A stretch of 64,000 nt of DNA from a phage, in the sequence record PZ386970.1; one strand, given 5' to 3'. The position numbers and the translations under genes are program-made. Of the stretch, positions 20,665 to 38,360 are shown in pieces; position 1 is the stretch's first letter; every line of letters starts with the position of its first letter. Below the pieces are notes generated by a model. It saw only the letters and a program-made list of their open reading frames with translations. It was not told where the DNA came from and ran no database searches.

Positions 20665-20692
20665 GACCCCCTAAAGGGACCCGAAGGTCCCC
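20665..20692 (-). terminator. UUCG-tetraloop hairpin element (terminator or stability element)
   Basis: Minus strand GGGGACC-UUCG-GGUCCC followed by UUUAGGGGGUC, directly after the stop of the gene at 20697-20963. Confidence 0.4.
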
Positions 20693-20696
20693 ACAT

Positions 20697-20963
20697 TTAC
20701 TTATCGCACTTAGCAACATAATTAGGCATATCACAGAATACGGAGCGAGTAACTACTCGGCCCTTTGACCATGCTTCAGTTGCTTGTCCTGCCGTGCTAT
20801 TAATATAGCTTGATTTAATGTTCTCAATACCCTGAGAATGTGATGCATTTACCGAACCGTTGGAAGGTGCAGAAGACTGGTTACCACCAGCTCCTGTACC
20901 TGTGGTAGCACCAACAGAGAATGCCATCATTACTGCGAATAAACCAATTACTAATTTTTTCAT
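20697..20963 (-). CDS. small secreted protein (signal peptide)
   Basis: 88 aa; N-terminal MKKLVIGLFAVMMAFSVGA signal-like segment, Gly/Ser/Thr-rich linker, C-terminal Cys pair. Confidence 0.5.
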   Translation of the reverse strand: MKKLVIGLFAVMMAFSVGATTGTGAGGNQSSAPSNGSVNASHSQGIENIKSSYINSTAGQATEAWSKGRVVTRSVFCDMPNYVAKCDK

Positions 20964-20994
20964 ATTTACCTCAAGTTAAGAGTTATTTATCTAC

Positions 20995-21984
20995 TTATTT
21001 ATAGTAAGAATTATGATTTTCGAGATAGACTTGCTCAAGGAAATCATCCCAGAAACTCATATCTACTTTTTGTTGCATACCGTTCTTAGCGGCCTGTTCT
21101 GATGCTTGTTCTACCTGGTCAACGATATCTTCTAGGAATTCTTGTACAGTTTTAAACGTATGTTTACCAAGCTTAACATCGAGAATAAATGGAGCATCTT
21201 GAAGTGGGTAAACCAGGTCGCCGGTTTTATAAATTTCCAATAGTTGAAGTCCACCACGACATGCATGACTCAATGCTTTCCAGTCAATACCTTCGTTAGC
21301 TTCTGCCTTACGAGCACGTTCACCGTAGTTCTCTTCCAGTTTAACCAGGATGGCATTGAACTCTTTATTGGTTAACGTGTCTTGGAATTTACGGTCTAAC
21401 AGACTATAGAACGTTTGCTTACCTGTTTTCTCGTTTTCGGTTTCAACCCATGAAGCAAATTCACCTACAGGCAGAACATTCTTCATATGTGATAAACGAA
21501 TTACTGCACCATTATCAAAGTATTGTCCCCATTCATTAGAACGTTTAAGGGCTTGACGAAGAACAGCCAGTCGAGAACCCTTGACACCGTATTTAGAAGC
21601 TTGCTTACGGACATACCCTAAATAAGATTTCATGTTAGTGGTATAGAAACGAGACCTGTTATCTTGAATATACTTCCATACATCAGGCAAATCAGATTTA
21701 ACTACTAGACTTTGTGGAGTGTGAAGCATATCTAATGCGACGGTTTCACCATCCGCAGCTAGTTTAAAGAAATATTTGAGACTATATAACTCATGGTCCA
21801 CGTCGTCTTTTGTGTTCTTAGAAGATGTGTTATTCGTGTTCTTGCTCATATGTTCTTTAACGTTACCGGTCAAGATATCACGAGCATGAGGGACATAAAT
21901 TTCTTTAAAATCGACGTCAGATTCAGGAGTAGACGTTCCATAAAGGTGGCTACCAAAGTAGCCTTTCATAATTGTTTTCATCAT
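20995..21984 (-). CDS. nucleotidyltransferase-fold protein (Pol-beta superfamily)
   Basis: 329 aa; N-terminal GSHLYGTSTPESDVDF fits the hG[GS]-x9-13-DhD motif, with a third acidic residue in the downstream strand ETVALDMLH. Confidence 0.55.
   Translation of the reverse strand: MMKTIMKGYFGSHLYGTSTPESDVDFKEIYVPHARDILTGNVKEHMSKNTNNTSSKNTKDDVDHELYSLKYFFKLAADGETVALDMLHTPQSLVVKSDLPDVWKYIQDNRSRFYTTNMKSYLGYVRKQASKYGVKGSRLAVLRQALKRSNEWGQYFDNGAVIRLSHMKNVLPVGEFASWVETENEKTGKQTFYSLLDRKFQDTLTNKEFNAILVKLEENYGERARKAEANEGIDWKALSHACRGGLQLLEIYKTGDLVYPLQDAPFILDVKLGKHTFKTVQEFLEDIVDQVEQASEQAAKNGMQQKVDMSFWDDFLEQVYLENHNSYYK
20997..21004 (-). promoter_or_regulatory. candidate T4 late promoter (TATAAATA)
   Basis: Exact TATAAATA on the minus strand about 34 nt upstream of the secreted-protein gene start; an 8-mer can occur by chance in AT-rich DNA. 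Confidence 0.3.
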
Positions 21985-22454
21985 TTAGCCTTATATTCAA
22001 GAGTAGGACAGACTTTTTCTTTACGAGCTTTAAGGTATTCACCTATTAATGATTTCTTACGTTCAATAGGCTCAAGTCCATTTTTAATTCGTTCTTGGTT
22101 TTGCGCAATGAGCTCAATTTCTTTATAATATTTTCTGTCGTTATATTTGTCTAACAACCAAGACGGACCAATTACCAACCCGGTAGCAATAAAAGCCATG
22201 ACTGCTACAATTAAAATGCCTACACCAATTGAGGCTGGAACTAATGTCCATAGACTGCTAAAAACAAAGAATTTAGTTAAAATTTCCTGGCCAATGATTG
22301 TGACTGCTGCTAAAATCGCAAATCCAATAATTGAAACAGCCAATACCGGGATTAACGTTTTCCAAAAATAAGCACACAACGTTTTCGGACGATTCCATGT
22401 ACTATTGAACGCGGCATAAATTTTAAAGTGCCAAGAGTTTTCATTGATAATCAT
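21981..22454 (-). CDS. hypothetical membrane protein
   Basis: 157 aa with three predicted transmembrane helices and a charged C-terminal tail. Confidence 0.45.
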   Translation of the reverse strand: MIINENSWHFKIYAAFNSTWNRPKTLCAYFWKTLIPVLAVSIIGFAILAAVTIIGQEILTKFFVFSSLWTLVPASIGVGILIVAVMAFIATGLVIGPSWLLDKYNDRKYYKEIELIAQNQERIKNGLEPIERKKSLIGEYLKARKEKVCPTLEYKAK

Positions 22455-22463
22455 AATAATTCC

Positions 22464-22994
22464 TTATTTCAAAGTCGGGATAATAGAATCGAGATAAGCT
22501 TTAAGAGCAACCGCTTCATCTTTGTCTAATGTAACGATATGCTGACGAAGGTCATCAATTTGGCGAATAACTACGACATCACCGTCTTCATAAGAAGGAT
22601 TAACGCCTAGGACTGTTGTATAGTCAGGGCGGTCCTGATTTGTAATAAAAGCATTACGGCATTTAGCCCATTGAAGTTTGGCCTTTTTGGCTGTTTCAGA
22701 TTCCACGAATTCTTTCACCTTAGTGACGAATGTTTTCCAATTATTAATAGAAAGGCATTCATCTTCTGTTTCGATATTAACCCCACTATAAAGGCCGTGA
22801 TAAAAACGAACTTGAAGGTCTTCATCGATGTTAATTACAGATGCATGGCCGGGCGGATTGAGTTTCAAAATCTTGTCCAGTTCCATAGGAAGAATAGTAA
22901 TAGAATCATCTTCTTGTGTCAGAACATACACATAACCGCGTTTTTCGATACATAAATCGCCAAACAACTCGGTTGTTTCAATTACGGTTTTCAT
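22464..22994 (-). CDS. hypothetical protein
   Basis: About 176 aa ORF; no motif. Confidence 0.4.
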   Translation of the reverse strand: MKTVIETTELFGDLCIEKRGYVYVLTQEDDSITILPMELDKILKLNPPGHASVINIDEDLQVRFYHGLYSGVNIETEDECLSINNWKTFVTKVKEFVESETAKKAKLQWAKCRNAFITNQDRPDYTTVLGVNPSYEDGDVVVIRQIDDLRQHIVTLDKDEAVALKAYLDSIIPTLK

Positions 22995-23310
22995 ATTATT
23001 CACCAATTAAAGTTTCAACAAAATTCACCAAAGCATTCTGGCAAGCGTCAACCTGATTTTCATAAAAGTCTCCGTTATCATTTACCGCATGATAAGCTAC
23101 ATCACTCAAATCTGAATCGGCTTCACGTAAGTCACGGATAAGGTCCATCAATTTATTAGCTTGTTCACGGGTCATTTTACCATACTCGTTTCAATAAGAT
23201 TCACTATGCCGTTTACCATGTTATAAGTAAACATCGGATAATTGTATTGTACTACAACATAAGCGATAAGCAAAAGTTTCATTTTGTTCTCCAATTGTTT
23301 TGATAGGACT

Positions 23311-23340
23311 ACTATAACATAGTCCTACCAAGATGTAAAC
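23311..23340 (-). promoter_or_regulatory. T4-type early promoter inside palindrome GATAGGACTA...TAGTCCTA
   Basis: Minus strand GTTTAC-18 nt-TATAGT. Confidence 0.45.
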
Positions 23341-23549
23341 TACCGATTATGTTTTAAATGTTGATAAAGTTCTTCAACTTGTTTAGGGTCCAAAACAATT
23401 AGGTCATTTTCTTGACGAAGATAAATCCATCCCTTATCCCCAGGTCCATTTTTACAAAACATCACCGTCGTCATATCATCATCTTCAGCGCTTTCAGGTA
23501 AAAGTTCAAGTACACCGTCTTCAGATTTTCCAGTATAATCGTAAAGCAT
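23340..23549 (-). CDS. hypothetical protein (rI.1 region)
   Basis: Trimmed ORF; acidic; no motif. Confidence 0.3.
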   Translation of the reverse strand: MLYDYTGKSEDGVLELLPESAEDDDMTTVMFCKNGPGDKGWIYLRQENDLIVLDPKQVEELYQHLKHNR

Positions 23550-23556
23550 AATATCC

Positions 23557-23736
23557 TCACATAATCTCGTTAACATACATTTGCAATTCGGTGTGGGCAT
23601 CTGCCATCTTTTTCATAGCTCTGTTAATGTCGATGTCTCCATCTTCGCAACCGTGAGCATTTTCCCAATCAGATACAGCATTAGCGTACTCTTCAATCAA
23701 AAACATTAACTTAGAAATTTTTTCTTTACGTGTCAT
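23557..23736 (-). CDS. hypothetical small protein (rI.1 region)
   Basis: Start moved to MTRKEKISKL..., which lies downstream of the promoter at 23764-23792 and has a GAGGAG ribosome-binding site. Confidence 0.35.
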   Translation of the reverse strand: MTRKEKISKLMFLIEEYANAVSDWENAHGCEDGDIDINRAMKKMADAHTELQMYVNEIM

Positions 23737-23763
23737 AATGTTCTCCTCTAGTAAGTAAGGTCT

Positions 23764-23792
23764 ACTATAACACAACCTGAGGAGAAGTAAAC
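23764..23792 (-). promoter_or_regulatory. T4-type early promoter
   Basis: Minus strand GTTTAC-17 nt-TGT-TATAGT. Confidence 0.5.
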
Positions 23793-23803
23793 TGATAGAT
23801 GCC

Positions 23804-23830
23804 AAAAAGCCCCAACCGTAAGGAAGGGGC
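23804..23830 (-). terminator. rho-independent terminator
   Basis: Minus strand AGCCCC-loop-GGGGCU followed by UUUUU, immediately after the rI stop; near-identical to the terminator at 39034-39063. Confidence 0.55.
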
Positions 23831-23837
23831 TAGTAAA

Positions 23838-24140
23838 TTAGATAGATGTAGGCTCTAATTTTATTTTCATGAACTCGGCAAATTGTCTGGCAGTTTTTAT
23901 GCCTTGTTCGTGACATTCAAATGCATCATCACAGGGGCTATTTTTGTAATGCTTTGCCATATACTTATAGAATTTTTCAGAATTCTCGACATTTTGAATT
24001 TCAAACAAAGTATATACGTTTTTAATCCCTGATTCCATAAAGTTATCAAAATATGGGTCGGTGTACGCAGTACCAACGATAGGAGTTGTTGCTGCAAAAA
24101 ACCCCAGCATCGCCATGACAGCTATCGCTCTTAAGGCCAT
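23838..24140 (-). CDS. rI: lysis-inhibition regulator RI-like membrane protein
   Basis: 100 aa with N-terminal signal-anchor MALRAIAVMAMLGFFAA and periplasmic domain with conserved Cys pair; position upstream of tk as in T4. Confidence 0.55.
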   Translation of the reverse strand: MALRAIAVMAMLGFFAATTPIVGTAYTDPYFDNFMESGIKNVYTLFEIQNVENSEKFYKYMAKHYKNSPCDDAFECHEQGIKTARQFAEFMKIKLEPTSI

Positions 24141-24152
24141 ATAGGCCTCCTG

Positions 24153-24365
24153 TTAATTTTGGCCAGTATTTATTTTTCGCCTTTGGACGGCCTTAACATC
24201 TGTGAGGTATTTTTCCAGCTTGCGCTTGCGTGTATAATCAGCTTTAGAACCAGTTTGACGGATATCCTCGTTTAAATGAGAAATAGAATGTCCTAATTCT
24301 CTTCGGATTTCATCCAATTGGGTTACAGTAAGATTACGAAGTTGTCTTTCGTTTAATTGCTGCAT
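24153..24365 (-). CDS. hypothetical protein (rI.-1 position)
   Basis: 70 aa basic, helical ORF. Confidence 0.4.
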
Positions 24366-24392
24366 ATATACCTCTTGGTTAGATATTAGTAT

Positions 24393-24974
24393 TTATAACA
24401 ACCCTGTCAAATCATTCCAATGCTTCCGGCATAATGACACATATCTATCAGTATCACCAATTTCAATTTGACTGCCATCTGTAATTGGAAGTCCGTCTTC
24501 CGTGACTCTAGCTACCATTGTGGCCTTTTTACCACAATGACAGACACCTTTAAGTTCAACAAGCTTATCGGCAATAGCCATTAATGCTTGAGAACCTTCA
24601 AATAGATTACCTTTAAAATCTGTTCGTAGTCCATATGCCATTACTGGCACATTGTATACGTCAACAATACGACTAAGTTGATACACCTTTTCAGTAGTTA
24701 AGAACTGAGCTTCGTCAACAAATACACAGTGAATATCCTTTTGTGCTGCAGCCCATTTATAGAATTCAAAGATATCCATGTCTTTTGTAATTATATTGGC
24801 ATCCTGACGAATACCAATACGAGAGACTATTTCACCTTTTGAATCACGAGTATCAATAGCCGGTTTAAGAACTAATACACCCATGCCACGTTCTTTATAG
24901 TTATGTGCAGCCGTAAGTAATGAAGCAGACTTACCAGCGTTCATAGCGGCATATGTAAAAATTAAACTAGCCAT
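24393..24974 (-). CDS. tk: thymidine kinase
   Basis: 193 aa; P-loop AAMNAGKSASLL, conserved VDEAQF, and zinc motif CHCG...CRKHW. Confidence 0.9.
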   Translation of the reverse strand: MASLIFTYAAMNAGKSASLLTAAHNYKERGMGVLVLKPAIDTRDSKGEIVSRIGIRQDANIITKDMDIFEFYKWAAAQKDIHCVFVDEAQFLTTEKVYQLSRIVDVYNVPVMAYGLRTDFKGNLFEGSQALMAIADKLVELKGVCHCGKKATMVARVTEDGLPITDGSQIEIGDTDRYVSLCRKHWNDLTGLL

Positions 24975-24983
24975 AAGAGTCCC

Positions 24984-25166
24984 TTATAGTGAATTCACAT
25001 AGTCAATGAGTTCTTGTTCTTTCCTGTCAAATGATTCCAACAATGCTTGATATTCTTCATCTGTTAAAGGAGCATATTCATCGTACGCATTGGTGGCTGC
25101 TTGCTCATCCAATAGGTCATGGATAAGTTCGAACAGTTTAGCTTTCTCTTCTTTAGTCAATTTCAT
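24984..25166 (-). CDS. hypothetical acidic protein
   Basis: 60 aa ORF; no motif. Confidence 0.35.
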   Translation of the reverse strand: MKLTKEEKAKLFELIHDLLDEQAATNAYDEYAPLTDEEYQALLESFDRKEQELIDYVNSL

Positions 25167-25657
25167 TTAGGTTCCCAATCAACAATCACAATTTCTAGTT
25201 TAGTGGAATACGTATCTAAAATCTCTTCGATGACATCCCAGTTTCCACCACCAATACCTGCACCAATTCTTGGCATATAAATTACAGGCTTTGTTATCTT
25301 ATTCTTTCCGAATTTATTTAATTCTATTATACAATTCATTAAAGCAGAGTACTCAAAATTAGGTCCCGGCTCAAACTGTGTATAAAGATTAAAGCAATAA
25401 GCTTTATGGGTCTTAAAATATTTTTCATAAACTGAATAAGTCCCGAGTTTAGACTCGTCTCCGAATTCGGTTTGAAGTTTATCGGCTTCTAAAATTTTTG
25501 GATAAGCCTTTGCTAATTGACCTGCTACACCGGCGCCCATTGTATGAAAACAATTACACCCATGAGCAATATTATTACCTTTAGAAAACAGGGCGACAAT
25601 ATCGCCCTTGATATAGTTTTTAATCACTTGCTGCAAGTCCTCTAGTATAAGAGTCAA
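25163..25657 (-). CDS. macro-domain protein (ADP-ribose binding/hydrolase fold)
   Basis: 164 aa; NIAHGCNCFHTMGAGVAGQLAKA and C-terminal IGAGIGGGNWDV glycine-rich loops typical of macro domains. Confidence 0.6.
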   Translation of the reverse strand: MTLILEDLQQVIKNYIKGDIVALFSKGNNIAHGCNCFHTMGAGVAGQLAKAYPKILEADKLQTEFGDESKLGTYSVYEKYFKTHKAYCFNLYTQFEPGPNFEYSALMNCIIELNKFGKNKITKPVIYMPRIGAGIGGGNWDVIEEILDTYSTKLEIVIVDWEPK

Positions 25658-25958
25658 CTAGACGGTCCACCATAGAATTGCATGCTGCCTTATCTTTAGG
25701 TTCCGCCACCGAGCATTCTAATATTTGCCATTTTTTATAGTATCTTTTAATTAAGGTAGACGCCTTGAACCTACTAGACGCCCCATCTTTTTCTCCGTCT
25801 TTATACGCATATAACAATTTTTGTGAAAAATCTACTTTACACTCTTGACTTTTACCACAATAATCAGACGCCGTTCTGTTTGTATACTCCGTCACATCAG
25901 TATATGTAGTATTAGCAAGAGCGTTAAATGAAACCAAGCCAACTATTAAAGCCAACAT
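25620..25958 (-). CDS. secreted/periplasmic protein with signal peptide
   Basis: N-terminal MLALIVGLVSFNALA signal peptide, four Cys in mature part; position could correspond to T4 vs, not verified. Confidence 0.4.
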   Translation of the reverse strand: MLALIVGLVSFNALANTTYTDVTEYTNRTASDYCGKSQECKVDFSQKLLYAYKDGEKDGASSRFKASTLIKRYYKKWQILECSVAEPKDKAACNSMVDRLVDSYTRGLAASD

Positions 25959-25963
25959 TTTGG

Positions 25964-26506
25964 TCATTCTTTTATTTCCAGTAGTTTATTTGATTTAAGG
26001 TAATTAGCCTTTTCTAGGACTTCAGAAGCATATTTACTTCCAGCACTTGTCTTCCATCCCGCATTATATGAGGATATGGCTTTTCTTATATCCCCGTTAT
26101 GTATATTTAACCAATAAGAAAATTCGATATAAGCCCATCTTGCTGAATTAGACCGCTTAGATAGCATTTTCTTAATTTGGGCATCAGTCATATTATAACC
26201 AAGCTGGTTAATTCTTGCCCTCATTGTTGGTAGATAGTTTTGGAACATTCCATACGCATGGTGACCTTTCTTATCTTTAAGATTAATACCGGCAGATGAT
26301 TCTTGCCATAATATTGCGGCCATTATGTATCCAAGTCCTTTCTTATGCATATTTTCATGCGTTTTAAATTTTCCGTCCTTAGAAAACTGTTCCCCAAACT
26401 GATAAGCATAATTCAAGTTATCGAGTTGGACATTACTAAAAGTATGCTCGGAGCTATGTGCTGATAATGAAAGAGCAAATAGACCAGCGAGTAGTGCTTT
26501 TCTCAT
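25964..26506 (-). CDS. lytic transglycosylase (SLT domain) with signal peptide
   Basis: Signal peptide MRKALLAGLFALSLSAHS; SLT-like motifs AILWQESS (catalytic Glu), YGMFQ, SYNAGW. Confidence 0.6.
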   Translation of the reverse strand: MRKALLAGLFALSLSAHSSEHTFSNVQLDNLNYAYQFGEQFSKDGKFKTHENMHKKGLGYIMAAILWQESSAGINLKDKKGHHAYGMFQNYLPTMRARINQLGYNMTDAQIKKMLSKRSNSARWAYIEFSYWLNIHNGDIRKAISSYNAGWKTSAGSKYASEVLEKANYLKSNKLLEIKE

Positions 26507-26514
26507 GTTTACCT

Positions 26515-26973
26515 CTAGATTTTAATCACTGCTTTAGAAGCTTTTCCTGGTAGTCGTTTACTGTTAATAATAGCCATTCTGCATTGAAGAGTCTTCATTT
26601 TGAATGCTGGATTTTCGCGACAAACTGTAAGGCCTAACCAAAGATTTCCATCAGTTATTTCTAAACGGCCTGGGCGATATTCGACACCTTCAACAAAATC
26701 TTCATCAACATCCGGACGTGCCGGCATTGATAAAAATTCTGCAACTTCTTTAACATGATTTTTTACTTTATGAAATAATTCAAAAACGTAGTTCTCATCT
26801 ATTTCTCTCTGGATGGCACGATCTAAGAGATGTTGAGAATACTTGATATGAAAGCCTGGTAGTCCAAGAGACTTTGCAGCATCTTTTATACCGGCATTTA
26901 TTTTGCGGAACTCCGTTTCAAAGATTCGACGGAGTTTATTACGGCGGATAAAAACTTCCGAATTGATAGTCAT
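26515..26973 (-). CDS. regB: endoribonuclease RegB
   Basis: 152 aa; size, position after the vs genes and overall similarity to T4 RegB as recalled. Confidence 0.7.
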   Translation of the reverse strand: MTINSEVFIRRNKLRRIFETEFRKINAGIKDAAKSLGLPGFHIKYSQHLLDRAIQREIDENYVFELFHKVKNHVKEVAEFLSMPARPDVDEDFVEGVEYRPGRLEITDGNLWLGLTVCRENPAFKMKTLQCRMAIINSKRLPGKASKAVIKI

Positions 26974-27001
26974 TTTGATTTCTCCTCTAGTTGACAGGTC
27001 T

Positions 27002-27030
27002 ATAGTAACACAACTAGAGGAGAAGTAAAC
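27002..27030 (-). promoter_or_regulatory. T4-type early promoter
   Basis: Minus strand GTTTAC-17 nt-TGT-TACTAT, 30 nt upstream of the regB start with a GAGGAG ribosome-binding site between. Confidence 0.5.
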
Positions 27031-27034
27031 TACT

Positions 27035-28086: not shown

Positions 28087-28092
28087 ATAACC

Positions 28093-30359: not shown

Positions 30360-30365
30360 TTTTCC

Positions 30366-30779: not shown

Positions 30780-30806
30780 AATTTCCTCCAAGTAGTTGAT
30801 GAATGT

Positions 30807-30836: not shown

Positions 30837-30837
30837 A

Positions 30838-31604: not shown

Positions 31605-31638
31605 AATACCTCCCACGTTTATAGGAGGTATTTATTAC

Positions 31639-32097: not shown

Positions 32098-32338
32098 CTC
32101 GGTCCCATGATTTGGCCATTAATTCAGACATAAATTCTTCAATGCGCGTTTCTTTAGATGGACTTTCACTATTAGAGACCGCAAGTTTGTAATCTGCAAT
32201 AGGACAGAACATATCAAGGTCCATATTAAGGTCGTCTTTGATTTTTTCTTCTGACACATCTTTATCGTATGTGTACAGATAACTATCACATGATTCTGAT
32301 TTAATGTAAATTGCTATACTCATCTCAAATTCCTGCAT
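32087..32338 (-). CDS. hypothetical acidic protein
   Basis: 83 aa ORF. Confidence 0.35.
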   Translation of the reverse strand: MQEFEMSIAIYIKSESCDSYLYTYDKDVSEEKIKDDLNMDLDMFCPIADYKLAVSNSESPSKETRIEEFMSELMAKSWDRDDE

Positions 32339-32667
32339 TCAGTAATAAAACGTTCAACTTCGTTATTCTTGGCTTTTATCTTGTCTTTATGTTCTTGTAA
32401 ACTACTTTTAATAAGATTAATAATGATGGCGGCGGTACCGCCGCCAATGATGCCACCAACAACACTTATGATACTAGATGCTAATAAGATAGCAATAATA
32501 TCAACAAAACCGAAAGAACTCACCTTAGTACTAAAAAACCATACCGACGGTACAAATATAATCCATCCTGTTATCCATTGGCACTTATTGAAAAACTTTT
32601 CAAGCTCAGCTTGAGTTGTTCGTATTACTTCATCGATAGGTTGATATCCATTAATGTATCTATTCAT
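32320..32667 (-). CDS. membrane protein, FIKECR-tail family member
   Basis: 115 aa; two hydrophobic helices; C-terminus NNEVERFITECRNLR. Confidence 0.45.
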   Translation of the reverse strand: MNRYINGYQPIDEVIRTTQAELEKFFNKCQWITGWIIFVPSVWFFSTKVSSFGFVDIIAILLASSIISVVGGIIGGGTAAIIINLIKSSLQEHKDKIKAKNNEVERFITECRNLR

Positions 32668-32668
32668 A

Positions 32669-32974
32669 TTATTTTCCTCGACATTCTTTAATGAAATTTT
32701 CTAGATTGGTAGATTCAATAGCTTTTTTACGAGCTTCTGCATGTTCTTCTTCAGACAATTTACATTTATAATTAACCCAGACATTATGGTCAAAACTAGT
32801 CGTGGCATATAATAACAATGCTCCAACGAATAACAAAAACGGCGATAAGAATACAAAACCAGGAACACCATCCATATCGTAAGCCTTTTGTAATACTGCA
32901 ACAGAAAGGGCTGCGTAAAAAGGTGATGCAAATATTGTTAAAAGACCAATTCGGTTGGTTTCGCCTAATTTCAT
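32669..32974 (-). CDS. membrane protein, FIKECR-tail family member
   Basis: 101 aa; two hydrophobic helices; C-terminus NLENFIKECRGK. Confidence 0.45.
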   Translation of the reverse strand: MKLGETNRIGLLTIFASPFYAALSVAVLQKAYDMDGVPGFVFLSPFLLFVGALLLYATTSFDHNVWVNYKCKLSEEEHAEARKKAIESTNLENFIKECRGK

Positions 32975-33001
32975 AATATTCTCCTCATGTTTAATAGGAC
33001 T

Positions 33002-33031
33002 ACTATAACATAGTCCTATAATTGTGTAAAC
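33002..33031 (-). promoter_or_regulatory. T4-type early promoter inside palindrome
   Basis: Minus strand GTTTAC-18 nt-TATAGT; palindrome GGACTACTATAACATAGTCC. Confidence 0.45.
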
Positions 33032-33043
33032 AGTTTTGTGAAG

Positions 33044-34000
33044 TTATTTGAAAGGTTTTACCATATGGAAATTTTGTTTGAAACGTTTGACGTAATCATT
33101 TTTGCCGAGCTTATGATACATAGCCACTACTTCATAATAGTTCTCGTATGCGTACTCACGGAACCAACCGGAGGTGATGCTTGTACAGACTTTTTCTAAT
33201 GCCATCATGAAACTGGCTTCAGGGTTAATTTTAAAGTCATTAGGAATCTGAGAACGTTCAAGAGCTAGTACACATGCTTCTTCGTATACACCGGCCAATT
33301 TGACCATTTCTGGTAATGATTCGAACTTCTCGCGTGAGGTCATGACTTCAGAACCATCTTTCATGTAAAATGTATAAGCCGGACGGTCTGTTAGTGCAAT
33401 GGCTTCATGAATAGTATCATGGTCATATGTGTAGATGTCATCTTTAAAGAATGCGCTTTTAGAAGTGTCAAGAACTGGGTGAGCATAGTTCAAGGTTTCT
33501 TTCTGGCGTTTCAGCATAATTTCAGTAAGTTCATCATTCAGTGTAACACCTTTACCGCGAAGATACTGAATATGGTTCATAGTCTTTAAAAAGAATGGAT
33601 TATTTTTCTTGAAACGATGAGACATCTTAATTGCAAGACATATCTCAGGAGTTGCCCAGTAAAACCCGTTCAAACGGTCTTTAGTCAAATTTTTCTTGGC
33701 GTATTTTAAAAGGTCATAAGAAGACGTGAAATCTTCAGGAGTGAGTTCACCGACTAATTCACGGACATTAGTGATTGCCGGAACGATGTATGCTTCAAAA
33801 TGAGTTTCGCGTCCATTATGGAAGCATTTGAAAACTTGGACATCAGGGTTATCTTGGTGAACATATACGCCCATCATTTGATTTTTGAATGCATTCCAAG
33901 AACCTTGGTCCGCAATAAAGTCCCAGTCACTATTTTTGATAGCGCTAGAATCAATAAGACCGTGATAGTGAAGTGCACGAGAACCAATAACTAACATCAT
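33044..34000 (-). CDS. hypothetical protein
   Basis: 318 aa soluble ORF; no confident motif. Confidence 0.45.
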   Translation of the reverse strand: MMLVIGSRALHYHGLIDSSAIKNSDWDFIADQGSWNAFKNQMMGVYVHQDNPDVQVFKCFHNGRETHFEAYIVPAITNVRELVGELTPEDFTSSYDLLKYAKKNLTKDRLNGFYWATPEICLAIKMSHRFKKNNPFFLKTMNHIQYLRGKGVTLNDELTEIMLKRQKETLNYAHPVLDTSKSAFFKDDIYTYDHDTIHEAIALTDRPAYTFYMKDGSEVMTSREKFESLPEMVKLAGVYEEACVLALERSQIPNDFKINPEASFMMALEKVCTSITSGWFREYAYENYYEVVAMYHKLGKNDYVKRFKQNFHMVKPFK

Positions 34001-34025
34001 AATAATTTCCTCGAATTTAGATTAC

Positions 34026-34277
34026 TTAAATTTCACGACATGCGATATTATATTCATCCCAGAGGTCATCGTGTGAAGCCTCTACCAATGGAACGATTGT
34101 ACCGTTTATGTCTTCATTATAAGGGCAAATTGTACAGTGCGCATCTTCGAATCGGATGCCTTTGTGTTCAGATTTTTTATAACGCATATCGAATATCTTT
34201 GCAAACTTTTCACGAGTAATGGTTTTACCAACCACTTTGGTTCCGATACTTTCGTAATAAATCATTGTGGACTCCAT
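34026..34277 (-). CDS. hypothetical protein
   Basis: 83 aa ORF. Confidence 0.4.
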   Translation of the reverse strand: MESTMIYYESIGTKVVGKTITREKFAKIFDMRYKKSEHKGIRFEDAHCTICPYNEDINGTIVPLVEASHDDLWDEYNIACREI

Positions 34278-34293
34278 TTAATTTGATAGGACT

Positions 34294-34323
34294 ACTATAA
34301 CATAGCCCTATCTTGTTGTAAAC
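34294..34323 (-). promoter_or_regulatory. T4-type early promoter inside palindrome
   Basis: Minus strand GTTTAC-18 nt-TATAGT. Confidence 0.45.
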
Positions 34324-34327
34324 TGTT

Positions 34328-34525
34328 TTAGCAAGAATAACTAGATGATACCCAGCCTTGAACAGTAATACTATTGTGGGATAATGAGATCGCGTCCTGG
34401 AGATTCAGACCTGCGTTATCTTCAATCCATAATGTAACTTCTTCGCGTTCTTCTGTTGCAATTTGGAACAGGTTTTCCAGAGCAGCTACTGCCGTACGTA
34501 CAGCACAATCTAATTCACGAGACAT
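34328..34525 (-). CDS. small protein, GWVxSSxxC-tail family member
   Basis: 65 aa; C-terminus QGWVSSSYSC. Confidence 0.45.
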   Translation of the reverse strand: MSRELDCAVRTAVAALENLFQIATEEREEVTLWIEDNAGLNLQDAISLSHNSITVQGWVSSSYSC

Positions 34526-34534
34526 AATATTTCC

Positions 34535-34807
34535 TTAGCAAGTGTGAGAAGATGCAACCCAACCGCCATCTTCAAGGCTCAAGTTGTAGTCGTATTGGTG
34601 AACGTCGGCCCATTCAGGATTACCATGTTTAGTATGATGTTCAAGGTCGGCTTTAAGATAACCTGGTGAATGATAGGTTCCGCCCATACCATATGCCGGA
34701 TACAAATTAAACGTGGTGTTTTGTTTATCAGCAATTTCTTTGGCTGCCTCAATAGCTGCATAGATTTTTGCTACAGCTTCAGCCAGTTCAGTTTGTTCTT
34801 TAGACAT
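34535..34807 (-). CDS. small protein, GWVxSSxxC-tail family member
   Basis: 90 aa; C-terminus GGWVASSHTC. Confidence 0.45.
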   Translation of the reverse strand: MSKEQTELAEAVAKIYAAIEAAKEIADKQNTTFNLYPAYGMGGTYHSPGYLKADLEHHTKHGNPEWADVHQYDYNLSLEDGGWVASSHTC

Positions 34808-34816
34808 AATGATTCC

Positions 34817-35122
34817 TTAGCACAATGCAGAAGACGAAACCCAAGCACCTTCAGTAATAACGTAACCATTACCTTCACGCTTAACATCGCCACCATTATT
34901 TTCAATTTCATCTTTCATCCACTGGGATACGATTTCACCCTTAGGATAATAAGTACGACCGCTACCATAATCACCTACAGAAAATGATACGGCATATTGG
35001 TCTGCGATCTTTGTTGCTTCTTCTTCGATACGTTCAGCTTGATTCAGAAGTTTATAAATTGCATCTGAAGCAGATTTGGCATCATTAAACTCTGGTACTT
35101 TAATTTCAATAATCTTACTCAT
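34817..35122 (-). CDS. small protein, GWVxSSxxC-tail family member
   Basis: 101 aa; C-terminus GAWVSSSALC. Confidence 0.45.
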   Translation of the reverse strand: MSKIIEIKVPEFNDAKSASDAIYKLLNQAERIEEEATKIADQYAVSFSVGDYGSGRTYYPKGEIVSQWMKDEIENNGGDVKREGNGYVITEGAWVSSSALC

Positions 35123-35478
35123 TTTCTACATTCCTTAATAAAGTTTTCGATTGTTTCATTTTCACGTTTAGCTAGGAGTTCATTATAACTAATCATTTGA
35201 GAAGCGTAAACCTTTTTATTTTTCTTGTTATGGTTTATAAAATCGTAGTAAAAATAGACTACAGTACAAAATGATGCGATGGATGCAAAGGCTTGGGTAT
35301 ACCGTAAGTCCTGCCATTGGTCTGTGAATCCACTGGTATTCCCTATAAATCCTAACACAACTCCGTCAATAAGAAATCCAACTAATCCAAAGGCAAATCC
35401 CATGCCAATACTCATAATAAAAATTAGAATGTTCTCACCAAGAGAAGGCCATACGGTTAAGAGTTGAGGCTTTTGCAT
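35119..35478 (-). CDS. membrane protein, FIKECR-tail family member
   Basis: 119 aa; hydrophobic helices; C-terminus ETIENFIKECRK. Confidence 0.45.
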   Translation of the reverse strand: MQKPQLLTVWPSLGENILIFIMSIGMGFAFGLVGFLIDGVVLGFIGNTSGFTDQWQDLRYTQAFASIASFCTVVYFYYDFINHNKKNKKVYASQMISYNELLAKRENETIENFIKECRK

Positions 35479-35882
35479 CTTATTTCCTTAACGAATTCCA
35501 TAGCTTCTTCATATTCATATTTTTTAACAGCCTCGTCATATTGAGCTCTTGCTTTTGCACATTGAATTTTCCATTCGCGTACTCGAGCTCTGTGATGACG
35601 GCCTTGGTACCAATATCCTGCCCAATTAATAGGCATTAATAAAAACGGTACAATAAGTGGTGCGACGAACATTAATGAAAACGCTGCATCAGACGATATA
35701 ACTTTATTGGAATCTAAAACAGCTCCTATAATCATAAAGATTAAAAATGCTAAAGCTAAAATAGGACCAAACAACACTTCATTAGGAATTAATTTACGTT
35801 TGTATTCGTACGCCCAAGGCTTAATTGGCATGTATAGGGTTGGCTTTGACATATTCTCTACATTCCATAATAAATTGCTCAA
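35457..35882 (-). CDS. membrane protein, FIKECR-tail-related (start uncertain)
   Basis: Two transmembrane helices; C-terminal tail EEAMEFVKEIRCK; true start probably an internal Met (MPIKPW...). Confidence 0.4.
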   Translation of the reverse strand: MSNLLWNVENMSKPTLYMPIKPWAYEYKRKLIPNEVLFGPILALAFLIFMIIGAVLDSNKVISSDAAFSLMFVAPLIVPFLLMPINWAGYWYQGRHHRARVREWKIQCAKARAQYDEAVKKYEYEEAMEFVKEIRCKSLNS

Positions 35883-36423
35883 GGATTAAATTGTTAGTGA
35901 AATTAGGACTAACAACCATGGTTTCATAAAGCGCATCAATAGCACTTAAAGCATCAACTCTTTTAAGCAAAGGCTTGCCTTCATACATAGTTTCAGAATC
36001 AACGATTAAAGTGAAGTAGTATTTTTTATTATCGACTAGAACTTCTGTATCGATATAAAACATATTAGACCTCAGAAGTTTATCTCTAAAGCCTACATAA
36101 TCATCTGAACGTTCACTGATATATTCCCATTCGGTGTTTAAACAACAAACAGACCATGTAGGAGCAACGAAATCAGTGAATCTAATATCATGGTCTGCAA
36201 CTAGTTTAGCAATAGCTCCGATATCATGAATCATAATACCTGGGGCTAATAAAGATTTTCTACTATGGCTAGCCGTTTTCTCAGTAGTCTCATAAGAAGA
36301 CGACCAGTACCATTTACGTCCAGTTGCAACATATCGTAATGAATCAACTAAAGACGTAGGTGGATTTACCTTATCTCGGAACTCTTCGAACATTGAGTCA
36401 ATATCATTATTTTGGTTTCGCAT
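35821..36423 (-). CDS. soluble protein with FIMECR tail
   Basis: About 200 aa starting MRNQNNDIDS...; C-terminus LEQFIMECREYVKANPIHAN. Confidence 0.45.
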   Translation of the reverse strand: MRNQNNDIDSMFEEFRDKVNPPTSLVDSLRYVATGRKWYWSSSYETTEKTASHSRKSLLAPGIMIHDIGAIAKLVADHDIRFTDFVAPTWSVCCLNTEWEYISERSDDYVGFRDKLLRSNMFYIDTEVLVDNKKYYFTLIVDSETMYEGKPLLKRVDALSAIDALYETMVVSPNFTNNLILEQFIMECREYVKANPIHAN

Positions 36424-36440
36424 GTTAACTCCTTTATTAT

Positions 36441-36464
36441 CCAAAAGGAGGACCGGAGTCCTCC
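36441..36464 (-). terminator. rho-independent terminator
   Basis: Minus strand GGAGGAC-UCCG-GUCCUCC followed by UUUUGG, immediately after the stop at 36473. Confidence 0.55.
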
Positions 36465-36472
36465 GTATTATT

Positions 36473-37066
36473 TTATTTCAAAGAGTTAATATATTCTTGT
36501 ACATCAGCAGAAGTGGTTTCGACACCGGCTGGAGTGCCATTGAACGTTTCAACACGAGTCAGAGTGTCTTCGATATCAACCTTAGTCAGTGCAGCGATTT
36601 CAATTACATCATCAGCCGTAGAGATACCAAGGGCATTGGCTGCTCGAGTTTCACGAATGTATTCGAGTTTGATTGCCAGGTTCTGACGAGCATCGTCAAG
36701 TTCAACCACCTTACGAGCAATTTCAATTCGCATAGCGGCATACCCGTCAGCTTTTGTATTAAGTTGTTCGGCAGTTCGACGATACAGAAGACCAAGCTTA
36801 GCATGCATGGTAACATCTTGTCCTTCAGCCAGGAGCTTACGAATTTCACGTTCCTTAGAAGCGGCTTGCTTGTTCTTTTCATTAACAAGTTCGCGAATAC
36901 GTTTTTCTTCATTAATAGATTTAACAGAAGCCGTTTTTAGTTCTTTGATTTGGGTAATCAACTTATCTGCAGCTGCGTTATACTGTTCTTCGACAGTCAG
37001 ATTTTTAGCCATAGCAGTACCCAGTTTAGTGCGGATAAATTCAACAAGTTTCTTCAGTGTGTTCAT
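36473..37066 (-). CDS. coiled-coil protein (possibly PspA/IM30-like)
   Basis: About 197 aa, predominantly helical with charged heptad-like segments; PspA resemblance is by composition and length only. Confidence 0.45.
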
Positions 37067-37136
37067 ATTATTACCTTTCAATTGGTGGTTTATTATCCAT
37101 GAGAGCATTATACTCTGCTCTCAGGAGTTTGTACAC

Positions 37137-37385
37137 TTATTTGTACGAATTAATAATCTCTTCCATTTTATCCAGAACATGGATATCGATTATACGAGGA
37201 AGTGCCGAAAGATTAGAACCGTCGAAAGATTTAAGGTCTTCCAAAATAATATTTTCAATGGCTTTTAAAGCTTCCGCAGATTCTGATGCAGAATTAAATT
37301 CAGGAATTTCTCCAAAAAGACGTAAGAATGAACCAAAGTATTCTGCGGCGATTTCTTTAGCTTGTTCGATATCAGACTTAAACAT
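37137..37385 (-). CDS. hypothetical acidic protein
   Basis: Start moved to MFKSDIEQ..., downstream of the promoter at 37414-37442. Confidence 0.4.
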   Translation of the reverse strand: MFKSDIEQAKEIAAEYFGSFLRLFGEIPEFNSASESAEALKAIENIILEDLKSFDGSNLSALPRIIDIHVLDKMEEIINSYK

Positions 37386-37413
37386 TTTGTTTTCCTCATT
37401 TGTTGGTGGAGTA

Positions 37414-37442
37414 ATCATATCACCATCCTTGGCGTTTGTACA
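37414..37442 (-). promoter_or_regulatory. T4-type early promoter
   Basis: Minus strand TGTACA-17 nt-TATGAT. Confidence 0.4.
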
Positions 37443-37670
37443 TTATTTTTTAATCAAATTGACATAAAACTTGGCGTCTTCCGGGTGCATGCCTTCGCAG
37501 TATTCTTCAACCATGAACTTCTTAACAGCTTCATAAGGACCACTCAGATTAAGCTCAGTTGTCCAGAACTTGGAATCTTGGACTGAATCGATACGAACTT
37601 CAGGGTGACGATTGCGAATAACTTCTTCGGTGTATTCATAATCAACGACATCAATACTAACTGTAGCCAT
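37443..37670 (-). CDS. hypothetical protein
   Basis: 75 aa ORF. Confidence 0.4.
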   Translation of the reverse strand: MATVSIDVVDYEYTEEVIRNRHPEVRIDSVQDSKFWTTELNLSGPYEAVKKFMVEEYCEGMHPEDAKFYVNLIKK

Positions 37671-37698
37671 TTTGTTTTCCTCTTGATTTGATGTGATT

Positions 37699-37728
37699 AC
37701 TATAACATAAACTTACTTAGATGTAAAT
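37699..37728 (-). promoter_or_regulatory. T4-type early promoter
   Basis: Minus strand ATTTAC-18 nt-TATAGT. Confidence 0.4.
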
Positions 37729-37911
37729 TATTTCAACGTCACCTTTAGCTGCTTTATAACCTTCGGCCCAAGATACAACAGAGTTTTTATCTGAGGATTC
37801 AAATTCAGGCATTGGGCTCTCGCCAATATTCACACAGTATGTTTCTTCGTTTTCATCGAACCAAATAATTAAAGTAGTCATTTTGTTTACTCCTCTGTAG
37901 TTGATAAGTCT

Positions 37912-37941
37912 ATAGTATCATCATCCTTTTGGCTTGTACAT
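37912..37941 (-). promoter_or_regulatory. T4-type early promoter
   Basis: Minus strand TGTACA-17 nt-TACTAT followed by AGACTTATC; serves a sub-60-aa ORF at about 37715-37882 that is absent from the ORF track. Confidence 0.45.
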
Positions 37942-37948
37942 CATTATT

Positions 37949-38254
37949 TTAATTTTTCCAACTTAACAACTTGTAGTATCCTTCATTCGTACGAGGTTTA
38001 TCCCAAGAAATACTAATATATGATTCGCTATCAATAGAAGTCGCCGGGTTTTTCTCTACCGTAAGACCTTCACTTTCCAGCCATTCAATAGTATTTGCGC
38101 ATAAATCAGAAGAACACCTCATCGGAAACCGGCAAGATTTTTCACCTTTAGCTGCAGTGTTATACATCTTTTCTAAAATACGCTTTTGCACGTTTTTAAA
38201 AATAGTTTCAGCAGATTCTTCAGATTTTTTATTCAGTTCAGTATAAAGACTCAT
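37949..38254 (-). CDS. hypothetical protein
   Basis: 101 aa ORF. Confidence 0.4.
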   Translation of the reverse strand: MSLYTELNKKSEESAETIFKNVQKRILEKMYNTAAKGEKSCRFPMRCSSDLCANTIEWLESEGLTVEKNPATSIDSESYISISWDKPRTNEGYYKLLSWKN

Positions 38255-38282
38255 AACATTTTCCTCTGTAGTCGATAAGTCT

Positions 38283-38311
38283 ATAGTATCACATCTAGGG
38301 AAGAAGTAAAC
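38283..38311 (-). promoter_or_regulatory. T4-type early promoter
   Basis: Minus strand GTTTAC-17 nt-TGA-TACTAT followed by AGACTTATC. Confidence 0.5.
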
Positions 38312-38331
38312 AACTTTTTTAGTAAGTTATA

Positions 38332-38360
38332 GACCCCCTAATGGGGACCGAAGTCCCCAT
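38332..38360 (-). terminator. UUCG-tetraloop hairpin element
   Basis: Minus strand AAUGGGGAC-UUCG-GUCCCCAUU followed by AGGGGGUC, directly after the stop at 38364; same architecture as the element at 20665-20692. Confidence 0.4.

Follow-up and report, generated by a model that had tools for sequence, protein, structure and literature searches.

Two UUCG hairpins of a Mosigvirus genome followed by a conserved G-run: probable PeSL-type intergenic cassettes

In a 64,000-nt stretch of phage DNA (sequence record PZ386970.1; referred to here as the window), which belongs to a Mosigvirus (i.e., an RB69-group T4-like phage), two minus-strand genes are each followed by a UUCG-capped GC hairpin and then by the 10-mer TTAGGGGGTC. 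The hairpins lie 4 nt (site 1; stop at 20697) and 2 nt (site 2; stop at 38364) past the stop codons. These sites raise the question of what the G-run represents, an earlier note having suggested an RNA 3' stability or processing element rather than a simple terminator. The arrangement that the note described was found at both positions, and the upstream genes are unrelated, as it had stated (phrog_2243, 88 aa; phrog_2280, 208 aa). The 208-aa ORF is the first listed ORF of at least 60 aa downstream of two tRNA genes.

The exact 10-mer occurs twice in the window, only at these two sites; its expectation is a mean of 0.04 per window, and two copies were reached in none of 100 dinucleotide-preserving shuffles. 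The genome has a G+C content of 35% and is otherwise nearly devoid of G5 runs. Over both strands of ~169 kb (the window plus the remainder of the close relative F27), there are six runs of five or more G's, two of which are those of the two sites. The combination of hairpin and G-run is present in only two copies per genome. The similarity extends well beyond the 10-mer: the two sites can be aligned over ~140 nt with 79% column identity, including promoter, SD, and ATG, a paralogy that the earlier note had overlooked.

Table 1. Coordinates of the two cassettes and of other UUCG hairpins in the window
Feature	Position	Strand	Remark
Site 1 cassette, stop to ATG	20699 to 20586	-	Sequence
Site 1 upstream gene, 88-aa signal-peptide-like ORF, phrog_2243	20697..20963	-	Stop TAA 20697-20699
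Site 1 hairpin GGGGACC-UUCG-GGUCCC(U), C(UUCG)G tetraloop	20675..20692	-	4 nt past stop
Site 1 tail (putative junction block) TTAGGGGGTC	20665..20674	-	G-run 20667-20671
Site 1 A/T-rich UP-like tract AAAATATTTTTAAAAAGTA	20646..20664	-	Direct reading of sequence
Site 1 putative -35 region GTGTAC, variant of T4-type GTTTAC	20640..20645	-	Sequence match
Site 1 putative -10 hexamer TATTAT, 17 nt past GTGTAC	20617..20622	-	Sequence match
Site 1 SD GAGGAG and ATG of downstream gene phrog_6001	20586..20600	-	SD 20595-20600; ATG 20586-20588
Site 2 cassette, stop to ATG	38366 to 38252	-	Sequence
Site 2 upstream gene, 208-aa ORF, phrog_2280	38364..38990	-	Stop TAA 38364-38366
Site 2 hairpin AAUGGGGAC-UUCG-GUCCCCAUU, 9 bp	38340..38361	-	2 nt past stop
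Site 2 tail (putative junction block) TTAGGGGGTC	38332..38341	-	G-run 38334-38338
Site 2 A/T-rich UP-like tract TATAACTTACTAAAAAAGTT	38312..38331	-	
Site 2 putative -35 region GTTTAC	38306..38311	-	Sequence match
Site 2 putative -10 hexamer TACTAT, 17 nt past GTTTAC	38283..38288	-	Sequence match
Site 2 SD AGAGGAA and ATG of downstream 101-aa gene phrog_18312	38252..38267	-	SD 38261-38267; ATG 38252-38254
Third minus-strand hairpin AGGAACUC-UUCG-GAGUUCCU	5630-5649	-	Overlooked by the earlier note
Third hairpin with U-rich tail, then TAGGG directly followed by TTTACA	5608..5649	-	TAGGG and TTTACA, 5608-5618
Hairpin GGGAGCC-UUCG-GGCUCCC past gp8, U-tract AUUUUUGU	54481..54498	+	Late strand
Hairpin AGGGCC-UUCG-GGCCCU past wac, no U-tract	60920..60935	+	Late strand

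The two sites are probably paralogous copies of a composite PeSL-type (promoter-early stem-loop) intergenic cassette, in which the G-run would be a junction block. PeSLs are terminator-plus-promoter cassettes known from between the early genes of T4-like phages, where they are used for gene shuffling (Arbiol et al. 2010, PMC2839356; Comeau et al. 2014, PMC4122927). Further marks of the type are the recombination of neighboring copies into mini-circles and the activity of terminator and promoter in reporter constructs, for which inverse PCR and lacZ fusions were used in PMC2839356. We assign the sites to this type because a predicted early promoter lies directly downstream of each hairpin, as in those cassettes (PMC2839356, PMC4122927). 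The order that we propose is stop codon, C(UUCG)G hairpin, 9- to 10-nt tail (A/U)UUAGGGGGU, A/T-rich UP-like tract, early promoter (written as G[T/G]TTAC-N17-TAYTAT), SD, and ATG. Both sites lie between a stop codon and the next ATG, end in an SD and start codon, and contain a stable stem-loop (-12.4 and -14.4 kcal/mol for the isolated stems). A sigma70-like promoter match follows the A/T-rich region (GTGTAC-N17-TATTAT and GTTTAC-N17-TACTAT). Similar copies of ~100 bp are repeated within one genome, namely the two sites; in F27, a third copy of the site 2 promoter module lies past gene 32. The site 2 tract TATAACTTACTAAAAAAGTT opens the promoter module that recurs, as this third copy, past the gene-32 terminator.

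Comparison among strains placed these cassettes at the edges of gene exchange. The adjoining small genes are subject to indels and replacements among close relatives: the 88-aa ORF is gone from Mosigvirus TH12 and WFL6982, with a ~300-bp indel that terminates within the hairpin, and TH12 diverges directly past the promoter. BLAST breakpoints coincide with the cassette edges. Furthermore, the site 1 hairpin is carried at site 2 in JN02, SSE1, and the IMG/VR contig L064, making gene conversion between the two copies evident from the sequences; in LH01, the loop is inverted. The cassettes thus appear to act as recombination landmarks, with hairpins exchanged between copies and gene indels stopping at the edges, which we judge to be probable together with the PeSL-type assignment as a whole. 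Alternatively, the block CCCC-(A/T)TTA-GGGGG could be the target of a DNA-binding protein, of phage or host origin, or of a site-specific recombinase, whose binding would drive the exchange of cassettes. The block forms an imperfect palindrome where recombination breakpoints lie, site-specific recombination is kept as an option in the PeSL papers (PMC4122927), and the LH01 inversion suggests DNA hairpin or cruciform events. Nevertheless, no candidate protein is known, homologous recombination over the ~100-bp cassette accounts equally well for the exchanges, and the strand bias of the UUCG loops (see below) points to an RNA role for the hairpin part; we consider such a protein site highly improbable.

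The hairpins themselves belong to a large set. There are ~25 UUCG hairpins per genome, 22 of them intergenic, and when orientation was checked against annotation tables, 24 of 25 had the UUCG loop in the sense orientation relative to the flanking genes, indicating that they act in RNA. Their stems vary by compensatory double substitutions (GGGGAC/GUCCCC to GGAGAC/GUCUCC; GGGAC/GUCCC to GGGCC/GGCCC). Both sites have the UUCG loop with C:G closure on the transcribed strand. The free energy is approximately -12.4 to -12.9 kcal/mol at site 1 and -14.4 to -15.5 kcal/mol at site 2, where the hairpin reads (AAU)GGGGAC-UUCG-GUCCCC(AUU); the stability z-score against shuffles was significant at site 2 only.

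As the earlier note had observed, neither hairpin is followed by a long U-tract; the tails are UUUAGGGGG and AUUAGGGGG. Counted from the minimal GC stems, the tails UUUAGGGG and AUUAGGGG hold three and two U's rather than a U-rich tract; counted past the extended stems of our hairpin census, the first 8 nt hold two U's and one U. A minus-strand terminator scan that requires at least five T's in an 8-base window starting 0 to 2 bases past the stem called neither main hairpin. Both hairpins are therefore predicted to be poor intrinsic terminators, since two to three U's followed by G5 would give a strong rG:dC hybrid. Sibling hairpins do carry proper U-tracts, past gp8 and, in F27, past gp23, gp32, and rIIB; at rIIB, the same GGGGAC-UUCG-GUCCCC hairpin is followed by U7. 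The gp8 hairpin, one of the two plus-strand hairpins to which the earlier note had pointed, is a canonical terminator. The other, past wac, is followed by an SD-like AAAGGA and an ATG.

These data bear on two parts of the earlier proposal. That the hairpins are RNA elements holds up (sense orientation, compensatory stem changes), and "not a simple terminator" is reasonable because the canonical U-tract is missing at both. The further idea, that the hairpin and AGGGGGUC form a signal dedicated to stabilizing or processing RNA 3' ends, with the G-run read by a nuclease or RNA-binding protein, we regard as very unlikely, although these are sense-strand RNA elements without U-tracts and the G-run is kept across genera at a set distance from the hairpin. 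The UUAGGGGGU tail is also Shine-Dalgarno-like and could bind 30S subunits, and real SDs occupy the same slot in MP1 (UAAGGAGAC, then AUG) and at the F27 rIIB site (UUUAGGGGUAAUUAUG). Against such a signal, Rfam searches returned only two tRNAs at the gathering threshold over the whole window and no family match over 20000-39200 even at an E value of ≤1, and the G-run follows only two UUCG hairpins per genome, with ~23 others having none. Known T4 RNA signals differ from the G-run; RegB cuts GGAG, and RNase E prefers AU-rich sites. Distant phages have the same G-run without a hairpin, directly upstream of -35 elements, i.e., in a DNA-level context. On these sequence grounds, the G-run does not point to a new RNA-processing signal.

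The association of the G-run with -35 elements was seen in related genera and in uncultured viral contigs. In five genera (Mosigvirus, Dhakavirus, Marfavirus, Winklervirus, and Tegunavirus) and at least four gene contexts, the G-run lies 4 to 5 nt past the hairpin, and orthologues of phrog_2280 in Marfavirus, Winklervirus, and Dhakavirus have the same hairpin and G-run downstream. It directly adjoins the -35 hexamer (TTAGGGGG followed by TTTACA) in Marfavirus, Winklervirus, and Tegunavirus; across genera, its distance to the -35 is 0 or 21 to 24 nt (21 to 22 nt in the window). A short G-block also adjoins a -35 past the third minus-strand hairpin of the window. Among uncultured viral contigs in IMG/VR, a -10 (≥5 of 6 positions of TATAAT) was present at the correct spacing in 61 of 107 unique instances (57%) of the 14-mer TTAGGGGGTTTACA, compared with 5 of 101 and 1 of 97 (1 to 5%) for controls differing in the G-run only. 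One of the contigs with this promoter type encodes a gp43-type polymerase, and at least one is T4-like. The best reading of these sequences is that the G-run is a junction block between a hairpin module and a promoter module in a composite DNA cassette. Its origin is probably on the promoter side; this is not proven because the same promoter module exists without a G-run past the F27 gene-32 hairpin, where the tail slot is UUUUGAGUA, and because promoters of this phage do not as a rule have a G-block near -60. With lower probability, the G-tract could be a so far undescribed element that extends the -35 upstream in early promoters across T4-like phages.

In the working that we propose, the hairpin would fold on an early polycistronic transcript arriving from upstream and, with its tail of two to three U's and G5, would function chiefly as a read-through attenuator and as an obstacle to 3' exonucleases, while host RNA polymerase would begin a new transcript ~60 nt past the hairpin. 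The G-run would have lain first next to the -35, as in the related genera, the 21- to 22-nt UP-like tract now intervening in this phage.

Could the G-run be a neutral relic (i.e., a fossil -35 upstream flank or an old Shine-Dalgarno sequence with no present function, kept by common ancestry and gene conversion)? At the orthologous site there is a graded series, in which GGGGG is directly followed by TTTACA in Marfavirus and Winklervirus, by TTTAAT with a second -35 in Dhakavirus, and by TC... in Mosigvirus. The Gravdalen orthologue of site 1 has CGGGC only, the gene-32 promoter copy lacks the run, and conversion between copies is evident. On the other hand, G5 is unchanged in 10 of 10 Mosigvirus copies examined (including both window sites, F27 site 1, and contig L064), while the adjoining hairpin arms, loops, and flanks vary. 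Retention in five genera and at least four gene contexts, within a 35% G+C genome nearly free of other G5 runs, suggests a selected function that the cassette explanation does not fully specify. We consider a pure relic unlikely.

The fixed spacing to the hairpin, together with the variable distance to the -35, argues that the G-run is functionally coupled to the hairpin and not to the promoter. One form of such coupling is a three-arm RNA switch, in which the 3' arm (GUCCCC or GGUCCC) pairs with either the 5' arm or the downstream G-run, and a ribosome ending at the stop codon masks the 5' arm so that the alternative hairpin forms. Translation of the gene upstream would then govern pausing, read-through, or the protection of 3' ends on early transcripts. 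The stop codon lies 2 to 7 nt ahead of the stem in all instances, the terminator scan flagged the alternative hairpin, and with the 5' arm blocked, alternative folds of -4.4 to -8.9 kcal/mol were obtained for 13 of 13 variants; in most Mosigvirus copies, the UC past the G-run lengthens the pairing, although F27, with TTAGGGGGTT at the site 1 tail, has C changed to U there. However, the complementarity is trivial, as a GC-clamped hairpin has a C-rich 3' base with which any adjacent G-run will pair. Stem changes (GGCCC, GUCUCC) occurred without covariation of the G-run, which pairs through C:G and wobble only. The main hairpin exceeds the alternative one in stability by 5 to 8 kcal/mol (by 16 kcal/mol at the P545 14807 site), is UUCG capped, and forms first, and the alternative hairpin has no obvious output because no U-tract lies downstream. 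We therefore rate the switch, including its control by a ribosome, as quite unlikely and retain the junction block of a PeSL-type cassette as the favored reading.

We found no earlier description of PeSL cassettes from Mosigvirus in the literature. Both sites share with PeSLs the stem-loop, A/T-rich tract, sigma70-like early promoter, SD, and ATG, as well as the ~100-bp repeats next to small genes of no assigned function at indel and exchange boundaries; the putative promoter fits the T4/PST form TTTACW-N17-TAYWAT (PMC4122927, PMC2839356). In RB49, polyG-loop-polyC straddles the -35/-10 elements, whereas the window hairpin is UUCG capped, lies upstream of the UP-like tract, and is followed by a second G-run; in PST, AGNA-loop-TCNT stems are reported instead of a UUCG-capped hairpin. 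Effective termination was reported for the RB49 stem-loops (PMC2839356), in contrast to the weak termination predicted for the window sites. With intrinsic terminators, both sites share a GC-rich hairpin directly past the stop codon, but two to three U's and G5 replace the U-tract.

A paper by Tuerk et al. from 1988 is said to be the original report of C(UUCG)G hairpins in T4 mRNA. Such hairpins were found there five years after 1983 (PMC4371310), and they share with both sites the very stable UUCG loop, the C:G closure, the sense orientation, and the intercistronic position. The two site hairpins are not distinct from the other UUCG hairpins, only the (A/U)UUAGGGGGU tail being unusual. T4 and RB69 early promoters have the consensus GTTTAC (PMC1524935), located at -36 to -31 in T4-type early promoters, with an A-rich UP region (PMC1524935, PMC2988021); in both cassettes, the downstream half agrees with this consensus. 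The G conserved at position -36 corresponds to a minimal form of the G-block that adjoins TTTACA elsewhere. The full G5 tract (TTAGGGGG followed by TTTACA) is absent from the published T4/RB69 consensus text, and at the window sites, 21 to 22 nt separate the G-run from the -35 region, so that the two are uncoupled.

[quoted passage not shown] The interval between the tRNA genes and a 208-aa ORF contains stem-loops that resemble a tRNA T arm in sequence. Neither ARAGORN nor Rfam made a call for them, and they could represent a decayed tRNA or, as with T4 rnaC/rnaD, a small stable RNA; phage NBG1 has GGTTCGAATCC at the corresponding place.

After the stop codons of two minus-strand genes (sites 1 and 2), a UUCG hairpin is followed by a G-run, i.e., a G5 block within the 10-mer TTAGGGGGTC. 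The paired occurrence of the hairpin and the 10-mer is confirmed, and chance is excluded: the exact 10-mer is present only at these two sites (expected, 0.04; 0 of 100 shuffles reached two), and only six runs of at least five G's were found on both strands of ~169 kb (the window and the rest of F27, a close Mosigvirus relative), two of which are those of sites 1 and 2. The sequences were exactly as the earlier note had described them, and its claim that the upstream genes are unrelated holds, as their proteins belong to different PHROG families, both of unknown function. The 88-aa ORF upstream of site 1 (phrog_2243) has a signal-peptide-like N-terminus; its identification as nrdC, based on "thioredoxin" labels in F27, was rejected, the PHROGs family being of unknown function.

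Positions of the cassette components and of other elements in the window
Feature	Position	Strand	Sequence or remark
Site 1 stop	20697-20699	minus	TAA, then AUGU
Site 1 hairpin	20675-20692	minus	GGGGACC-UUCG-GGUCCC, then UU
Site 1 G-run motif	20665-20674	minus	UAGGGGGUC after UU
Site 1 promoter	20645-20617	minus	GTGTAC-N17-TATTAT (sequence match)
Site 2 stop	38364-38366	minus	TAA, then AG
Site 2 hairpin	38340-38361	minus	AAUGGGGAC-UUCG-GUCCCCAUU
Site 2 G-run motif	38332-38341	minus	AGGGGGUC after hairpin
Site 2 promoter	38311-38283	minus	GTTTAC-N17-TACTAT (sequence match)
88-aa ORF	20697-20963	minus	
Third UUCG hairpin	5608-5649	minus	AGGAACUC-UUCG-GAGUUCCU; span includes the U-rich tail and TAGGG-TTTACA
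UUCG hairpin	54481-54498	plus	
UUCG hairpin	60920-60935	plus	
T-arm-like stem-loops	~39092-39140	minus	CCGGG-UUCAAAU-CCCGG
Second-class stem-loop	23300-23331	minus	
Second-class stem-loop	34285-34312	minus	
Second-class stem-loop	41728-41757	minus	
Second-class stem-loop	41349-41376	minus	
Second-class stem-loop	8345-8378	minus	
Second-class stem-loop	31605-31632	minus	

The two sites can be aligned over ~140 nt with 79% column identity. At both, the G-run is followed by an A/T-rich tract (21 to 22 nt up to the -35 region, GTGTAC or GTTTAC), a T4-type early promoter, a Shine-Dalgarno (SD) sequence, and the ATG of the next gene. The site 1 A/T tract was considered as a near-consensus UP element, and by our own reading 11 to 15 of 17 positions match, depending on the register; it is therefore only UP-like. 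Direct reading of either site revealed no suitably spaced start codon of a short ORF that an SD-like G-run might serve. The third minus-strand UUCG hairpin has a U-rich tail and then TAGGG directly abutting TTTACA, a short G-block adjoining the -35 hexamer as seen in other genera.

The UUCG tetraloop was first discovered in T4 mRNA (PMC4371310). A census of the window and F27 that required a stem of 5 bp or more yielded 25 hairpins with a UUCG loop; the plus-strand hairpins listed in the earlier note are real. In 24 of the 25, UUCG is read in the sense direction of the flanking genes, and 22 were intergenic according to the annotation tables, most of these beginning a few nucleotides past a stop codon. 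Most of the 25 carry a U-rich tail, and those without one usually have an SD and ATG directly 3'. The stems show compensatory changes, from GGGGAC/GUCCCC to GGAGAC/GUCUCC in Dhakavirus IME281 and from GGGAC/GUCCC to GGGCC/GGCCC between two Tegunavirus-type loci, with a G.U intermediate in phage X20. The strand bias and these changes together show that the UUCG hairpins act in RNA, and those of sites 1 and 2 are in themselves ordinary for a T4-like phage. No Rfam family matched the region of the sites, even at an E value of ≤1. Of the earlier reading of hairpin plus G-run as an RNA 3' stability or processing element, the part that survives is that the hairpins function at the RNA level and differ from canonical terminators; a dedicated RNA-processing signal is possible, and the G-run as such a signal is unsupported.

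The G5 block was invariant in all 10 Mosigvirus copies (both window sites, F27 site 1, and the IMG/VR contig L064 included), with variable stems, loops, and flanks. The only varying position of the block is the final C after the G-run, which is T in F27. A hairpin-(A/U)UUA-G4-6 arrangement with a 4- to 5-nt linker was also detected 3' of the orthologue of the site 2 gene in Marfavirus (P545; Marfa, with a CUUG loop), Winklervirus (Gravdalen; X20, with G6), and Dhakavirus (IME281), and after other genes in Tegunavirus (fHe-Yen9-01, L196) and at P545 position 14807. The G-run may be a DNA-binding or recombination site, or a neutral relic. Its constant distance from the hairpin and its retention in five genera speak against pure neutrality.

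A -35 hexamer, itself properly spaced from a -10, directly adjoins the G-run in Marfavirus, Winklervirus, and Tegunavirus (e.g., TTAGGGGG followed immediately by TTTACA-N17-TAGTAT). In Dhakavirus, TTTAAT comes after the G-run, and a second -35 hexamer begins ~30 nt downstream of that TTTAAT. Given that the other early promoters of P545 carry TAG, GTG, TTAGGTG, or TTAGGGTG against TTTACA, the G-run is the most G-rich case in a graded series of upstream flanks. In this Klebsiella phage (L458), the TAG stop of the upstream gene can itself adjoin TTTACA (e.g., 2512-2520, 10764-10772, 18357-18365, and 48499-48507), so that the last G of the stop is the conserved -36 G of the next early promoter, an instance of extreme compaction.

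The 14-mer TTAGGGGGTTTACA is abundant in uncultured viral contigs of IMG/VR. It was compared with two control 14-mers (at least 120 loci for each of the three) regarding the fraction with a proper -10, i.e., at least five of six positions matching TATAAT at a spacing of 16 to 18 nt. Among the matches listed, such a -10 followed 61 of 107 unique instances of TTAGGGGGTTTACA (57%), 5 of 101 instances of TTACCCCCTTTACA, and 1 of 97 instances of TTAGGCGGTTTACA. Nearly every recognisable promoter of the TTAGGGGGTTTACA contigs has G3-5 against TTTACA, and one contig (L176) encodes a gp43-type DNA polymerase that is 46 to 48% identical to those of marine T4-like myoviruses. In about a quarter of the instances, C5-T6 lies just past the -35, giving a predicted G5-loop-C5-U6 hairpin whose loop contains the -35; these hairpins match the polyG/polyC stem-loops reported for promoter-early stem-loops (PeSLs) of phage RB49. 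The upstream consensus of the TTAGGGGGTTTACA loci (L085-L204; e.g., L088, L090, L176, L195, and L202) is approximately AAAAWWTNCAT, and L202 has four copies within 7.5 kb.

On this sequence evidence, the association of the G-tract with promoters is real in other T4-like and uncultured phages, and the G-run of the window is uncoupled from the -35, occupying the slot of a terminator's U-tract. The G-run was rejected as a general terminator or promoter feature of the window phage: each genome has no more than two copies, and most early promoters found by a deliberately strict pattern lack a G-block near -60. Comparison with Tegunavirus and Dhakavirus made it suggestive that TCTATA after the site 2 G-run is a decayed TTTACA; this reading is weakened because the same TCTATAACTTACT tract occurs, without a G-run, in the gene 32 promoter module. 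An IMG/VR scan with TCCC-N(1,2)-TTAGGGGGTC returned 79 loci, of which only L064 is a real relative and the rest are chance matches.

A tail of two to three U's and then five G's would place a strong rG:dC hybrid at the point of hairpin formation, and weak termination is therefore expected. The site 1 and 2 hairpins would thus act as read-through attenuators or 3'-exonuclease barriers, with transcription restarting at the adjacent promoter. The GGGGAC-UUCG-GUCCCC hairpin also occurs after rIIB in F27 (L457, ~167,880-167,896), with a U7 tract and then UUUAGGGGUAAUUAUG, the G-block of which serves as an SD; with its U7 tail, this copy shows a putative terminator version of the design. In Morganella phage MP1 (L454), the same hairpin carries AUCUAAGGAGACAUUAUG. 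Judging from these two tails, G-rich SDs can fill the same slot as the G-run. A translation-sensitive switch (ALTERNATIVES), with the G-run pairing with the 3' arm of the hairpin, is conceivable, as this fold reaches -4.4 to -8.9 kcal/mol with the 5' arm blocked and a ribosome terminating 2 to 7 nt upstream would cover that arm. However, the main hairpin has -12 to -15.5 kcal/mol (-20.3 at the P545 14807 site), the complementarity is trivial for a G-run beside a C-rich stem base, the alternative hairpin lacks a U-tract, and co-variation is unsupported, since stems change without a matching change in the G-run.

In Mosigvirus JN02 and SSE1 and in L064, site 2 bears the site 1 hairpin of the window (GGGGACC-UUCG-GGUCCC-U), which is evidence of exchange between copies 17.7 kb apart. 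In the site 2 orthologue of Escherichia phage LH01 (L447), the loop is inverted (GGGGAC-CGAA-GUCCCC) and the stem and G-run are unchanged, suggesting a DNA-level inversion or a strand switch inside the palindrome. The 88-aa ORF is a ~300-bp presence/absence polymorphism among Mosigvirus strains, with its right boundary inside the site 1 hairpin: TH12 and WFL6982 lack it, have the hairpin GGGCC-UUCG/UUCA-GGCCC, and resume homology to the window within that hairpin. TH12 also departs from the window directly 3' of the site 1 promoter. In BLAST searches with site 2, some phages shared only the promoter and downstream gene and others just the upstream gene plus the cassette; the breakpoints coincided with the edges of the cassette. 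An unrelated U-tract hairpin is joined to the site 2 promoter in NBG1 and O157 typing phage 3, and in F27 a nearly unchanged site 2 promoter module lies 3' of the gene 32 terminator hairpin, with the 9-nt tail UUUUGAGUA in place of AUUAGGGGG. In all these cases, the cassettes act as modules of recombination.

On the minus strand of the window, early promoters also carry conserved long stem-loops of another class, which extend over the -10. This second class has the form GTTTAC..(T)GATAGGACTAT-guuaua-GUAGUCCUAUC(A) (11 to 14 bp; -14 to -19 kcal/mol) and resembles the RB49-type PeSL layout, in which the stem-loop covers the -10; TATAGAC(C/T)TATC is the only half of it kept at sites 1 and 2.

For RB69, 57 early promoters were predicted, with GTTTAC at -36 to -31 and no G-run in the description (PMC1524935), and a full-text literature search with the motif strings matched unrelated primer sequences only. 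A single detail is undescribed, namely the G-run at the junction and its connection with the G-tract/-35 promoter motif. The G-run offers a simple test case for tail control of termination versus read-through and for a G-tract upstream of the -35 adding to early-promoter strength, and the current understanding of phage gene regulation is unchanged by these findings. PeSLs are defined as a stem-loop, an A/T-rich region, a sigma70-like early promoter (T4/PST consensus, TTTACW-N17-TAYWAT), an SD, and an ATG, repeated in the genome beside small genes of unknown function (PMC2839356, PMC4122927), and sites 1 and 2 agree with this definition in each respect. As judged from sequence, they are composite cassettes of the PeSL type, based on T4-type UUCG hairpins, and clean examples of hairpin exchange, of an indel ending in a hairpin, and of modules re-paired by recombination, by which Mosigvirus joins the T4-like phages employing composite stem-loop/promoter cassettes.
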